Of a stretch of 64,000 nt of DNA, positions 9,736-15,774 are shown in pieces. The DNA is from Escherichia coli (GTDB lineage: Bacteria; Pseudomonadota; Gammaproteobacteria; Enterobacterales; Enterobacteriaceae), in assembly GCF_030013205.1 (NCBI RefSeq), contig NZ_CP122648.1, one strand, 5' to 3'. The position numbers and the translations under genes are program-made. Every line of letters starts with the position of its first letter. Within the stretch, counting starts at the first letter, position 1. The notes under the pieces were generated by a model. That model was not told the origin of the DNA, made no database searches, and saw nothing but the letters and a program-made list of their open reading frames with translations.

Positions 9736-11292
9736 ATGACAAGTATTCAACAACGAGCAGAACTGCACCGCCAGATATGGCAAATTGCCAATGATGTCAG
9801 AGGTTCTGTTGACGGATGGGATTTTAAGCAATACGTTCTGGGCGCACTTTTCTACCGTTTTATCAGCGAAAATTTTTCCAGTTATATTGAAGCCGGTGAT
9901 GACAGCATCTGTTATGCGAAACTGGATGACAGCGTAATTACTGATGACATTAAAGACGATGCCATCAAAACCAAAGGCTACTTCATCTACCCAAGTCAGC
10001 TTTTCTGCAACGTAGCTGCGAAAGCAAATACCAATGACAGACTGAATGCAGATTTAAACAGCATCTTCGTTGCTATCGAAAGTTCTGCTTACGGCTACCC
10101 TTCAGAAGCAGACATCAAAGGTTTGTTTGCTGATTTCGATACCACCAGTAACCGCCTGGGTAACACCGTTAAAGATAAAAATGCCCGCCTGGCTGCGGTT
10201 CTGAAAGGGGTTGAAGGGTTAAAACTTGGTGACTTCAACGAACATCAGATTGACCTGTTCGGTGATGCCTATGAGTTCCTGATTTCTAACTATGCCGCGA
10301 ATGCCGGTAAGTCCGGCGGCGAGTTCTTTACACCGCAGCACGTCTCTAAGCTGATTGCACAACTGGCTATGCACGGGCAGACCCACGTTAACAAAATATA
10401 CGACCCGGCAGCAGGTTCCGGTTCGCTGTTGTTGCAGGCTAAAAAACAGTTCGATGACCACATCATCGAAGAAGGCTTTTTCGGTCAGGAAATCAACCAT
10501 ACGACCTATAACCTGGCGCGTATGAACATGTTTTTGCACAACATCAACTACGACAAGTTTGATATCAAGCTGGGCAATACGCTGACTGAGCCGCACTTCA
10601 GAGATGAAAAACCGTTTGATGCCATCGTTTCTAACCCGCCGTATTCGGTGAAATGGATTGGCAGCGATGACCCGACGCTGATTAACGATGAACGTTTTGC
10701 CCCGGCTGGCGTTCTGGCCCCCAAATCCAAAGCTGACTTTGCGTTTGTATTACATGCGCTGAACTATCTTTCTGCCAAAGGTCGTGCTGCGATTGTTTGC
10801 TTCCCGGGTATTTTTTACCGTGGCGGCGCGGAGCAGAAAATCCGTCAGTATCTGGTTGATAATAACTATGTCGAAACCGTGATTTCACTGGCACCGAATC
10901 TGTTCTTTGGCACCACCATTGCCGTAAACATTCTGGTGCTGTCTAAACATAAAACGGATACCAAAGTTCAGTTTATTGATGCCAGCGAACTGTTCAAAAA
11001 AGAGACTAACAACAACATTCTGACCGATGCCCATATAGAAAAAATTATGCAGGTATTTGCCAGCAAGGAAGATGTTGCTCATCTGGCGAAATCTGTCGCG
11101 TTTGAAGCCGTTGTCGCGAATGACTATAACCTGTCAGTGAGCAGCTATGTGGAAGCGAAAGATAACCGCGAAATTATCGATATTGCTGAGCTGAATGCAG
11201 AACTGAAAACTACGGTTAGCAAAATCGACCAGTTGCGTAAAGATATTGATGCGATTGTGGCTGAAATTGAAGGCTGCGAGGTGCAAAAATGA
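9736..11292 (+). CDS. hsdM: Type I restriction-modification system, DNA methyltransferase subunit M (type IC-like)
   Basis: 518 aa; SAM motif [10 protein letters not shown] and catalytic NPPY; overlaps hsdS start (ATGA). Confidence 0.9.
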
Positions 11293-12536
11293 GCGAGTTG
11301 AGTTATCTGGAAAAATTGCTGGATGGGGTTGTGGTTGAGTGGAAAACCCTTGAGGATATTTCTATAAAGATATCATCTGGAGGAACCCCTAAAACTGGCG
11401 TATCAGAATTTTATGATGGCGACATTCCTTGGTTGCGAACTCAAGAAGTAAACTTTTGTGATATATGGGATACCGAGGTAAAAATAACTGAGTCTGGAGT
11501 TAAAAACTCTAGTGCAAAATGGATACCAAAGAATTGTGTCATTGTTGCTATGTATGGGGCAACTGTGGGGAAAATCGGCATAAACAAAATTCCAATGACA
11601 ACAAATCAAGCGTGCGCAAATATTCAACTTAATGAAGAAGTTGCTCATTATAGATATGTATTTCACTTCTTGTGTAGCCAATACACATATATCAAATCCC
11701 TTGGAACAGGGTCCCAGACAAACATAAATGCGCAGATTGTCAAAAATATTAAGATCCCCATCCCCTGCCCAGAAAACCCGGAAAAATCCCTTGCCATCCA
11801 GTCTGAAATCGTTCGGATTCTGGACAAATTTACTGCACTTACCGCTGAGCTTACCGCTGAGCTTAACATGCGTAAAAAACAGTACAACTACTATCGCGAC
11901 CAGTTGTTGAGTTTTAAAGAGGGTGAGGTTGAGTGGAAAAGTCTGGAAGATATTGCTTTATTTAGACGGGGTTCATTTCCACAGCCATATGGAAATAGTG
12001 AATGGTATGATGGAGAAGGTTGCATGCCTTTTGTTCAGGTAGCTGATGTGGCTGATTCAGGATTTACATTACACACAAAAACCAAACAACAGATTTCTAA
12101 GATTGCACAAAGCAAGAGCGTTTTTGTTGAGGCTGGAACAATTGTTGTGACACTGCAAGGTACTATTGGTCGAGTAGCAATAACACAGTACGATTGTTAT
12201 GTGGATAGAACTCTTGCAATATTTACTAACTTTAAAGTAAAAATAAACAAAAAATACTTTGCTTATCAACTAAAAGCTAAATTCGATTCAGAGAAAGAAT
12301 TTGCAAGAGGAAGTACTTTGAAGACAATTACAAAAGAAGAGTTTTCTAAGTTCCAATTACCTCTTCCCTCAATAAACGAACAAAATCGTATAGTATCACT
12401 ATTGGATAAGTTCGATACACTGGCTCATTCAATAAAACAAGGTCTCCCGCGTGAAATCGAGTTGCGCCAGAAACAATACGAATACTACCGTGATTTACTG
12501 TTCAGTTTCCCGAAACCTGAAACTGCCAGTAATTAA
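11289..12536 (+). CDS. hsdS: Type I restriction-modification system, specificity subunit S (type IC-like, two TAEL repeats in central conserved region)
   Basis: 415 aa with two target-recognition halves each followed by KQYxYYRDxLLSF conserved region; central LTAELTAEL. Confidence 0.85.
11841..11864 (+). repeat. 12-bp tandem repeat (accgctgagctt x2) encoding TAEL-TAEL in hsdS
   Basis: Direct tandem duplication read in sequence; in type IC hsdS genes the copy number of this unit sets the spacer length of the recognition site. Confidence 0.8.
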
Positions 12537-12657: not shown

Positions 12658-15600
12658 ATGACTCATCAGACACACACCATTGCTGAATCCAATAACTTTA
12701 TCGTTCTTGATAAGTACATCAAAGCTGAGCCAACAGGCGACAGCTACCAGAGCGAATCGGACCTGGAACGTGAACTGATTCAGGACCTGCAAAATCAGGG
12801 TTATGAATTTATTTCCGTAAAATCACAGTCGGCAATGCTATCCAATGTTCGGGAACAGCTTCAGAGCCTCAATGGTGTGATGTTTAATGACAGCGAGTGG
12901 CGGCGCTTCACGGAGCAGTATCTGGACAACCCCAGCGATGGTATTCTGGATAAAACCCGTAAAATCCATATCGACTATATCTGCGACTTTATTTTTGACG
13001 ACGGGCGACTTGAGAACATCTATTTGATAGATAAAAAGAATCTCATGCGCAATAAGGTGCAGATTATCCAGCAGTTTGAACAGACGGGTTCTCATGCTAA
13101 CCGTTATGACGTCACGATCCTGGTTAATGGTTTACCGCTGGTGCAAATCGAACTAAAAAAACGCGGGGTGGCGATTCGTGAGGCTTTCAACCAGATACAT
13201 CGTTACAGTAAAGAGAGTTTTAACAGCGAAAATTCCCTGTTTAAGTATCTGCAACTGTTTGTCATTTCTAACGGCACCGATACCCGTTATTTTGCCAACA
13301 CGACAAAGCGCGATAAAAACAGTTTTGACTTCACCATGAATTGGGCGAAATCAGACAACACGCTGATTAAAGACCTCAAAGACTTTACCGCTACCTTTTT
13401 CCAGAAACATACTCTGCTGAATGTTCTGGTGAACTACAGCGTTTTTGACAGTAGTCAGACGCTACTGGTGATGCGACCGTACCAGATTGCCGCCACCGAG
13501 CGCATTCTGTGGAAAATTAAGAGTTCCTTTACAGCGAAGAACTGGTCAAAACCGGAAAGCGGTGGGTATATCTGGCACACTACCGGTTCTGGTAAAACCC
13601 TCACCAGCTTTAAAGCCGCGCGTCTGGCAACAGAGCTGGACTTTATTGATAAAGTCTTCTTTGTGGTCGACAGGAAAGACCTCGATTACCAGACCATGAA
13701 GGAATATCAGCGTTTTTCGCCAGACAGCGTCAACGGCTCGGAAAATACCGCAGGCCTTAAACGAAATCTGGATAAGGACGATAACAAAATTATCGTCACT
13801 ACTATTCAGAAACTCAATAACCTGATGAAAGCAGAAAGCGACCTGCCTGTATATAATCAGCAAGTGGTGTTTATATTTGATGAATGCCACCGCAGCCAGT
13901 TTGGAGAAGCGCAGAAAAACCTGAAGAAGAAATTCAAACGCTATTATCAGTTTGGTTTTACCGGCACCCCTATTTTCCCGGAAAACGCCTTAGGCTCAGA
14001 AACAACCGCCAGCGTATTTGGTCGTGAATTGCATTCGTATGTAATTACCGATGCGATTCGTGACGAAAAAGTGCTCAAATTCAAAGTGGACTACAACGAT
14101 GTGCGGCCACAGTTTAAGTCTTTAGAGACAGAAACTGACGAGAAAAAACTAAGTGCGGCTGAAAATCAGCAGGCGTTTCTTCATCCCATGCGTATTCAGG
14201 AAATCACGCAATATATTCTGAATAATTTCCGCCAGAAAACTCACCGTACCTTCCCTGGCTCAAAAGGTTTTAATGCTATGTTGGCAGTGAGCAGCGTGGA
14301 TGCCGCGAAAGCCTATTATGCGACGTTTAAACGGTTACAAGAAGAAGCCGCTAATAAATCGGCTACCTATAAACCGCTGCGTATTGCGACAATCTTCTCC
14401 TTTGCCGCCAATGAAGAACAAAATGCCATTGGTGAAATTTCCGATGAAACTTTTGATACCAGCGCAATGGACAGCAGTGCTAAAGAGTTTCTGGACGCTG
14501 CAATTCGTGAATATAACAGCCATTTTAAAACTAACTTTAGCACCGACAGTAACGGTTTTCAGAACTACTATCGTGATTTAGCCCAGCGGGTTAAAAATCA
14601 GGATATCGATCTGCTAATTGTCGTGGGGATGTTTTTAACCGGCTTCGATGCTCCAACATTGAACACGCTATTCGTCGATAAAAACTTGCGTTTTCACGGC
14701 CTGATGCAGGCATTTTCCCGCACCAACCGTATTTATGATGCAACTAAAACCTTCGGTAATATCGTCACTTTCCGGGATCTGGAACGCTCAACTATTGATG
14801 CCATAACGCTGTTTGGTGATAAAAACACCAAAAATGTGGTGTTAGAAAAGAGTTATGCTGAGTATATGGAAGGCTTTACTGATGCTGCTACTGGTGAAGC
14901 TAAACGCGGCTTCATGACAGTAGTTTCAGAACTGGAACAACGGTTCCCTGACCCTGCCAGTATTGAAAGTGAAAAAGAGAAGAAAGACTTCGTTAAACTG
15001 TTTGGCGAATACCTGCGTGCCGAGAACATCCTGCAAAACTATGATGAATTTGCCACGCTAAAAGCCCTGCAACAAATCGATCTTAGCGATCCTGTTGCGG
15101 TAGAAAAATTCAAAGCAGAACATTATGTGGATGATGAAAAGTTCGCTGAATTGCAAACAATTCGTCTCCCTGCTGATCGCAAGATTCAGGATTATCGTTC
15201 TGCCTATAACGATATTCGCGACTGGCAGCGCCGTGAGAAAGAAGCTGAGAAAAAAGAGAAATCAACCACTGACTGGGATGACGTAGTTTTTGAGGTCGAT
15301 TTGCTGAAGTCTCAGGAAATAAACCTGGATTATATCCTTGGACTGATTTTCGAACACAACAGACAAAATAAAGGCAAGGGCGAAATGATCGAAGAGGTCA
15401 AACGCTTAATTCGTTCAAGCCTGGGGAACCGTGCTAAAGAGGGCCTGGTGGTCGATTTTATTCAGCAAACGAACCTGGATGATTTACCGGACAAAGCCAG
15501 CATCATTGACGCATTCTTTACGTTTGCTCAACGCGAACAGCAACGTGAAGCAGAAGCCTTGATCAAAGAAGAAAATCTCAATGAAGAGGCGGCGAAACGC

Positions 15601-15774
15601 TATATTCGCACATCTTTAAAACGCGAATACGCCACCGAAAATGGCACGGAATTAAACGAGACACTGCCCAGACTCAGTCCTTTAAATCCGCAATATAAAA
15701 CGAAAAAACAGACTGTTTTTCAAAAAATTAGCGCATTTATTGAAAAATTTAAGGGGGTGGGTGGAAAGATTTAG
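12658..15774 (+). CDS. hsdR: Type I restriction enzyme endonuclease/helicase subunit R (type IC-like)
   Basis: 1038 aa; SF2 helicase motifs (TGSGKT Walker A, DECHRS DEAH-box); stop codon abuts the IS5 end. Confidence 0.85.

Follow-up and report, generated by a model that had tools for sequence, protein, structure and literature searches.

Type I restriction-modification families were first told apart by whether their subunits complement each other, by antibody cross-reaction and by DNA hybridisation. In the type IC family, the two methylated adenines of the bipartite N6-methyladenine (m6A) site are 7 nt apart when the specificity subunit HsdS has two TAEL units and 8 nt apart when it has three. 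EcoR124I (GAAN6RTCG) has two copies of the 12-bp unit behind this difference and EcoR124II (= EcoR124/3; GAAN7RTCG) has three, and the copy number changes via unequal crossing-over (PMC3874165). EcoDXXI (TCAN7RTTC) and EcoPrrI (CCAN7RTGC) have three units, and engineered EcoR124/EcoDXXI hybrids shifted their spacers exactly as predicted (PMC3874165). Here we analysed an hsdM-hsdS-hsdR operon found at positions 9736-15774 of a 64,000-nucleotide stretch of Escherichia coli DNA (contig NZ_CP122648.1 of assembly GCF_030013205.1), hereafter called the window.

Like EcoR124I (plasmid R124; PDB 2W00, 7BST-7BTR), the window has the gene order hsdM-hsdS-hsdR and two TAEL units at the same place. However, both target recognition domains (TRDs) are unlike those of EcoR124I, so that the recognition sequence should be different, and the operon lies in a chromosomal tRNA-Ser island, whereas EcoR124I is on a plasmid. 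EcoR124II belongs to the same family and uses the same repeat unit, but it has three units instead of two and its TRDs differ as well. EcoDXXI and EcoPrrI are also type IC enzymes with TAEL in the D1 helix, with three units against the two of the window. Taking all our observations together, we consider it very probable that the locus is a complete, probably active type IC system, carried on a horizontally acquired cassette (9676-15774) in a tRNA-Ser-linked island of porcine E. coli, with a new pair of TRDs and with two TAEL units that would set the spacer and could be gained or lost. Its activity, its actual motif and any switching at the locus are inferred.

The operon is made up as follows.

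9736-11292, + strand: hsdM, m6A methyltransferase subunit of 518 aa, uninterrupted open reading frame (ORF)
11289-12536, + strand: hsdS, specificity subunit of 415 aa, uninterrupted ORF
12537-12657, + strand: hsdS-hsdR spacer of 121 bp, without an ORF
12658-15774, + strand: hsdR, ATP-dependent translocase/endonuclease subunit of 1038 aa, uninterrupted ORF

The start of hsdS overlaps the stop of hsdM by 4 bp (ATGA), and the hsdM-hsdS pair is followed by a separately spaced hsdR, which is the layout of a type IC operon and also that of pIP1206, LR-46 and the other loci examined. RefSeq annotates the three genes generically as hsdM/S/R. HsdM aligned over its full length (residues 1-518) with the M subunit of EcoR124 (7BST_D; 1153 bits, E=0), and reached only 67 bits against the HsdM of the type IA enzyme EcoKI. 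Likewise, HsdR aligned from 1-1038 to 1-1038 with the HsdR of EcoR124I (PDB 2W00; 2282 bits), with about 12 substitutions in the displayed part of the alignment that leave the catalytic motifs unaffected. Both proteins scored far above the cut-offs of their NCBIfam models (HsdM, 651 bits for TIGR00497 with a cut-off of 243; HsdR, 767 bits for TIGR00348 with a cut-off of 285), while PADLOC gave full-length matches of HsdR to REase_I (1621 bits) and of HsdS to Specificity_I (458 bits). By searching the translations with regular expressions, we located the following catalytic motifs.

10402-10422, + strand: AdoMet-binding motif I of HsdM, DPAAGSG, aa 223-229
10633-10644, + strand: catalytic motif IV of HsdM, NPPY, aa 300-303
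13108-13158, + strand: PD-(D/E)xK nuclease motif of HsdR, D151...E165-x-K167, found at aa 151
13585-13599, + strand: Walker A of HsdR, GSGKT, aa 310-314
13879-13890, + strand: DEAD-box motif II of HsdR, DECH, aa 408-411

The stretch with the nuclease motif is the same as that of EcoR124I in the alignment. As firmly as sequence allows, the locus is of type IC (EcoR124 family), and interchange of its subunits with those of EcoR124I in a complementation assay is very likely, as expected from the near-identity of M, R and the conserved regions of HsdS. An original prediction, made from the letters of the window alone, had called the locus a type IC system with uninterrupted hsdM, hsdS and hsdR genes and their catalytic motifs, and had noted that an HsdR of 1038 aa would fit an EcoR124-type R subunit. 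Its ORF limits and lengths turned out to be exact and all the motifs could be located; HsdR has the same length as the EcoR124I protein and aligns with it end to end, and the assignment to type IC agrees with the scores of HsdR and HsdM against the EcoR124 subunits and with the match of the HsdS conserved regions.

HsdS aligned with the EcoR124 protein (7BST_A) in three conserved blocks of 16, 127 and 100 bits, with variable TRDs in between. It thus has the type IC layout of an N-terminal segment, TRD1, a central helix with TAEL, TRD2 and a C-terminal helix, of which the main parts are given below.

11337-11744, + strand: TRD1, N-terminal target recognition domain, aa 17-152
11745-11957, + strand: central conserved region with the D1 helix that spaces the TRDs, aa 153-223, matching EcoR124 HsdS residues 140-210 (127 bits)
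11958-12308, + strand: TRD2, C-terminal target recognition domain, aa 224-340
12309-12536, + strand: C-terminal conserved region with the D2 helix, aa 341-415, matching EcoR124 HsdS residues 330-404 (100 bits)

Compared with EcoR124, the central region (aa 153-223) has two substitutions outside its ends at the TRD boundaries, and the helix around TAEL has none. The TRDs behave differently. TRD1 has the same amino acid sequence (100% identity) as its counterpart in the pIP1206 HsdS, a protein of 427 aa with three TAEL units, and shares about one-third identity with the C-terminal TRD of EcoR124I. TRD2 gave no significant match to either of the EcoR124I TRDs and was found at 100% identity in many E. 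coli alleles with different TRD1s (for instance in loci L002, L003 and L004). This comparison with known type IC S subunits is the one that the original prediction had proposed as a check. Since the conserved regions are shared with EcoR124 while both TRDs are different, the window carries a new type IC specificity allele, that is, a new TRD combination within a textbook family. We also noticed domains with 98.5-100% identity to TRD1 in the C-terminal TRD slot of four other E. coli HsdS proteins (P0017, P0034, P0043 and P0106). TRDs of type IC HsdS proteins therefore move between positions, which makes any assignment of half-sites by position unsafe.

The closest relatives share parts of this allele in two different ways. 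With the F-plasmid type represented by pIP1206, RM.EcoST101IX and Eco067II, the window has about 95% DNA identity over 9676-11955 (hsdM and the 5' part of hsdS) and over hsdR. The pIP1206 cassette has the same limits as that of the window and an identical TRD1, but differs in its TRD2 and in having three TAEL units, and it lies in an IS1-flanked transposon beside phd/doc on an F plasmid. Conversely, the chromosomal alleles of strains LR-46 and EPSSH018 and those of plasmids of about 92-130 kb (e.g. pS163-2.4) are 100% identical to the window in TRD2 and the downstream conserved region but differ in TRD1. LR-46 and EPSSH018 also have the same GTPase-hsdM-hsdS-hsdR context as the window, and the HsdR of LR-46 is identical. 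LR-46 and the plasmids have three units, whereas EPSSH018 has two like the window.

The TAEL repeat itself is simple.

11841-11864, + strand: two tandem 12-bp units ACCGCTGAGCTT, giving TAEL-TAEL at HsdS aa 185-192

These positions read accgctgagctt accgctgagctt, and Tandem Repeats Finder extended them to a perfectly periodic tract at 11838-11865 (28 bp, 2.3 copies, 100% match). Nowhere else in the 64 kb of the window is a 12-bp sequence exactly duplicated in tandem. Since no such duplication arose in any of 200 Markov-1 simulated windows, the repeat is not due to chance. The linker of the D1 helix, from LDKF to RKKQY, is 13 residues long and the equivalent D2 linker 17, so that a third TAEL unit would equalise both helices. 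The original prediction had placed two TAEL-TAEL copies at these very positions in the central conserved region, which we could confirm to the base, and had stated that gain or loss of one unit changes the spacer by 1 bp, which is the established rule for type IC enzymes (PMC3874165). Phase-variable type I systems, with their invertible segments or simple-sequence repeats, were considered as a model for the locus and rejected, given its single hsdS, the absence of a recombinase beside the operon, the small number of units (only two) and a copy number that is constant among carriers.

To place the two units of the window among other E. coli alleles, we used the 191-bp central region as a query, which matched 1,277 of 5,426 E. 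coli genomes. At even steps down the ranking, 60 records were taken and their copy number was read from the alignment length, with a sequence check for some of the +12 cases only. About 28 of the 60 had two units and about 25 had three (+12-13 nt), whereas five were ambiguous; one record was longer by 24 nt (four units) and another one by 36 nt (five units). Fetched loci gave the following series.

LR-46 chromosome and plasmid pS163-2.4: three units, same TRDs as EPSSH018
EPSSH018 chromosome: two units, same TRDs as LR-46
pIP1206: three units, same TRDs as P0122 and P0121
P0122: two units, same TRDs as pIP1206
P0121: one unit, same TRDs as pIP1206, recorded on 28 contigs
E89 (L007): four units, hsdM lost from the locus (IS3 insertion)
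YPE12 (L008): five units, hsdM truncated

In all the fetched loci every unit is ACCGCTGAGCTT, except for the first unit of the four- and five-copy alleles, which has one synonymous change. With one to five copies among these loci, and with some alleles that have identical TRDs and are told apart by repeat number alone, switching does take place in nature, and these alignments indicate that it recurs on evolutionary timescales in type IC hsdS genes of E. coli. In the literature we found no published motifs for two members of any such same-TRD series. We also observed that the highest counts, in E89 and YPE12, come from loci in which hsdM is missing or truncated. Once a system stops working, its copy number may drift upward.

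As for the recognition sequence, the best lead comes from TRD1. In a methylome study of ST101 (bioRxiv 10.1101/2020.06.07.138552), RM.EcoST101IX, with 100% nucleotide identity to the pIP1206 system, was assigned CC(m6A)GN6RTTG, a motif that matches Eco067II in REBASE; the two S subunits differ by one Y-to-H substitution. The same Y/H polymorphism is seen in the KKQ[Y/H]NYY stretch of alleles fetched here. In agreement with this assignment, loss of an IncF plasmid with a type I methyltransferase abolished methylation at CCAGN6RTTG in ST131 (PMC6692316); the ST131 EC958 methylome is from a strain without a type IC system. Since TRD1 of the window is the TRD1 of the CCAGN6RTTG enzyme, one half-site of the window enzyme is expected to be either CCAG or the complement of RTTG, CAAY. 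Likeness of TRD1 to the C-terminal TRD of EcoR124I, which reads CGAY, gives a weak hint in favour of CAAY. The TRD2 of pIP1206 matched neither of the EcoR124I TRDs, so the half-site of TRD1 is not assignable by that route, and we found no published motif for any of the alleles that share TRD2 with the window. A literature search for motifs with CCAGN5/6/7, N5-7RTTG or N5-7CTGG returned only the pIP1206-type motif and CCAGN7RTTC of Klebsiella pneumoniae (M.KpnAATI). The latter could not be linked to a sequence. CC(m6A)GN6RTTG would have the 8-nt interval of a three-unit enzyme, provided that the methylated A lies opposite the first T of RTTG. By analogy, the window enzyme with its two units is expected to methylate adenines 1 bp closer together than a three-unit enzyme with equivalent TRDs.

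We then looked at the distribution of the allele. Over its first 32.5 kb, the window shares 99.988% identity with the chromosome of the swine isolate E. coli K_EC180. The M and R proteins are those of K_EC180, and the same RefSeq accession for HsdR is also found in the unrelated strain LR-46. Among 5,426 complete E. coli genomes, 15 have the exact hsdS allele at 100% identity, all with two repeat units. Pigs or wild boar were the source of all 15 carriers, among which are W13-16 and P15-25, both O139:H1, and nine strains named as enterotoxigenic E. coli (ETEC). No PLSDB plasmid record had the full hsdS allele at a coverage of at least 80%. The exact HsdS protein is recorded on 148 contigs in a collection of 5.8 billion protein sequences, and among the matches listed from that collection all near-identical HsdS proteins have two units. 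An allele that is unchanged in 15 genomes and 148 contigs fits maintenance by selection.

Comparison with the plasmid copies also gave the limits of the cassette.

9676-9735, + strand: conserved leader upstream of hsdM and left limit of the cassette, where homology with pIP1206 and pS163-2.4 begins

Chromosomal and plasmid copies (the latter being pIP1206 and pS163-2.4) have in common the segment between 9676 and the end of hsdR at 15774, which has a GC content of 43% compared to about 50% in the flanking core genome. Low GC and cassette limits in common with plasmids fit horizontal acquisition, and on these comparisons we read hsdMSR (9676-15774) as a mobile cassette. On the plasmids, the cassette lies directly downstream of a phd/doc toxin-antitoxin pair (pS163-2.4, L003 202-803; pIP1206, L006 31209-31810). 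On the chromosomes it adjoins a YeeP-like GTPase gene, and homology between plasmids and chromosomes starts about 60 bp upstream of hsdM.

By homology to EcoR124I, an M2S1 complex would methylate one adenine per strand of the bipartite target. With HsdR bound (R1-2M2S1), an unmethylated target would trigger ATP-driven translocation and DNA cleavage away from the site. The length of the D1 helix, here with two TAEL units, would fix the spacing of the half-sites; unequal crossing-over or replication slippage in the 28-bp periodic tract could add or remove a 12-bp unit without loss of frame, and each unit would change the spacer by 1 bp. A changed TAEL number would then create a new specificity and leave the host chromosome unmodified against the new site. 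Type IC systems tolerate a new specificity via assembly-based restriction alleviation (PMC12707154, an EcoSal review).

The operon is located within an island of about 37 kb (window ~5415-42350), which is bounded by a tRNA-Ser next to ghrA at one end and by a tyrosine integrase next to dgcT at the other; beyond window position 32536 the island was inferred from the K_EC180 annotation. It contains cbtA/cbeA, an Ag43 fragment, the YeeP-like GTPase gene, an IS5-family element, a truncated second hsdM, Hhe and a group II intron. The neighbours that bear on the operon, together with a site from a consensus scan of the hsdS-hsdR spacer, are the following.

12564-12593, + strand: weak promoter-like site in the hsdS-hsdR spacer, TTAACA-18-TATTTT
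15775-16970: IS5-family element (ISKpn26-like) with terminal repeats GGAAGGTGCGAA...TTCGCACCTTCC, starting on the base after the hsdR TAG
17164-18216: truncated second type I hsdM, 30% identity to type IC HsdM, below the TIGR00497 cut-off
19646-25393: Hhe anti-phage protein, ORF of 1915 aa, full-length match to PADLOC Hhe (4301 bits)

EcoR124I is known to have a separate hsdR promoter, and the weak spacer site is compatible with such a promoter here. In the prr locus, prrC lies between hsdS and hsdR; a prr-type locus with an anticodon nuclease was rejected for the window, where the 121-bp gap has no ORF. The left flank of the IS5-family element is TTAG and its right flank CTAA; these are reverse complements and not a direct 4-bp target duplication. 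Such flanks suggest an IS5-mediated rearrangement that joined the type IC cassette to the defence genes downstream. With Hhe nearby, the type IC operon lies in a defence island.

Whether the two units ever change in this lineage can be read in more than one way. The system may be intact and active with a fixed specificity, two copies being one of two common ground states and no switching taking place at a biologically relevant rate in the lineage; this seems to us slightly more probable than its contrary. In line with it, all 15 complete genomes with the allele have two copies at 100% identity, the near-identical protein matches listed have two copies too, two copies are about as frequent as three across E. 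coli, and two units provide just 16 bp of offset homology. However, near-identical alleles one unit apart exist in other TRD backgrounds, one of them with the same TRD1, which indicates that the event recurs on short evolutionary timescales, and rare variants in a subpopulation would be invisible in consensus assemblies. The statement of the original prediction that the locus is poised for specificity switching is therefore generically and evolutionarily true, as it is of every type IC hsdS, but it does not single out this locus, in whose lineage no switching was found (15 genomes, all with two copies). Nothing marks the window allele as unusually unstable, and switching here is a potential only. 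At the other extreme, a rapidly phase-variable switch (a "phasevarion") with mixed methylomes within a population is very improbable. The repeat does alter specificity in frame, and repeats adjacent to TAEL have been proposed as a possible route of spacer variation (review PMC7383803), but there are just two 12-bp units and no long repeat tract, the window has a single hsdS with no silent copies and no adjacent recombinase, and the copy number does not vary among carriers.

Several observations weigh against a complete, probably active system. The IS5-family element abuts the hsdR stop, leaving the hsdR ORF intact with its native 3' flank gone. Promoter-like sites in the region were not more numerous than expected from shuffled sequences, and none stands out. 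TRD1 should read CCAG or CAAY, both assignments being possible, and our literature search found no methylome of the O139:H1 lineage. Finally, copy-number variants of the window TRD pair were found neither among the 15 complete carrier genomes nor among the near-identical protein matches listed. A genetically intact locus that is silent, restricted to methylation or deficient in restriction, and carried as cargo of a decaying island, would accommodate some of these points. The island is indeed heavily degraded, with fragments of Ag43 and of an antirestriction gene, the truncated second hsdM, IS elements and pseudogenes; the lack of an outstanding promoter and the IS5-family element right after hsdR, without a matching target duplication, point the same way; and decayed type IC loci do exist, such as the four- and five-copy alleles with a truncated or missing hsdM. 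We nevertheless judge it improbable: the three genes are full-length with unaltered catalytic motifs, M and R are identical in K_EC180 and HsdR is identical in the unrelated LR-46, and about 6 kb of coding sequence has stayed intact and invariant in every carrier while its neighbours decayed. A complete, probably active type IC system remains our preferred reading.

Such a system would give its host a methylation motif specific to the strain as well as a barrier by restriction, both relevant to genetic manipulation and to the host range of plasmids and phages, and the predicted motif would be useful in epidemiology, for typing porcine O139:H1/ETEC strains by their methylomes. More tentatively, and rather less probably than not, the TRD1/TRD2 pair found only in pig-associated E. 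coli may specify an undescribed bipartite m6A motif, made of CCAG or CAAY plus a second half-site, with a spacer one base shorter than that of a three-unit version of the same enzyme, and may act as a lineage-specific barrier to DNA exchange. The alleles with one to five units suggest that type IC systems of E. coli have commonly evolved by changing the length of their spacer. If this is true, a lineage-specific motif would limit DNA exchange in pig-associated E. coli, whose carriers include O139:H1 edema-disease strains, and TAEL spacer switching would go well beyond the classic examples with two and three units. No new mechanism is implied: the biology is textbook, and the modestly new element is the natural series from one to five units, including same-TRD alleles, which extends the EcoR124I/II story modestly to population scale.

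Some further features of the island are of minor interest. Within 17164-19471, the truncated hsdM is followed by an overlapping ORF of 466 aa with a weakly SspE/HNH-like C-terminus, and RefSeq treats both as pseudogene fragments; this segment is what is left of another defence system. On the other side of the operon, RefSeq annotates an antirestriction gene.

6883-7413, - strand: ORF annotated in RefSeq as "antirestriction protein", matching only positions 1-37 of the 92 of Pfam Antirestrict (PF03230)

This ORF overlaps the truncated Ag43 gene and is probably a fragment, although an antirestriction gene is an odd companion of a type I operon. The island also has genes resembling inovirus Gp2 and many IS fragments, and pgaC, just outside it, is frameshifted in K_EC180.

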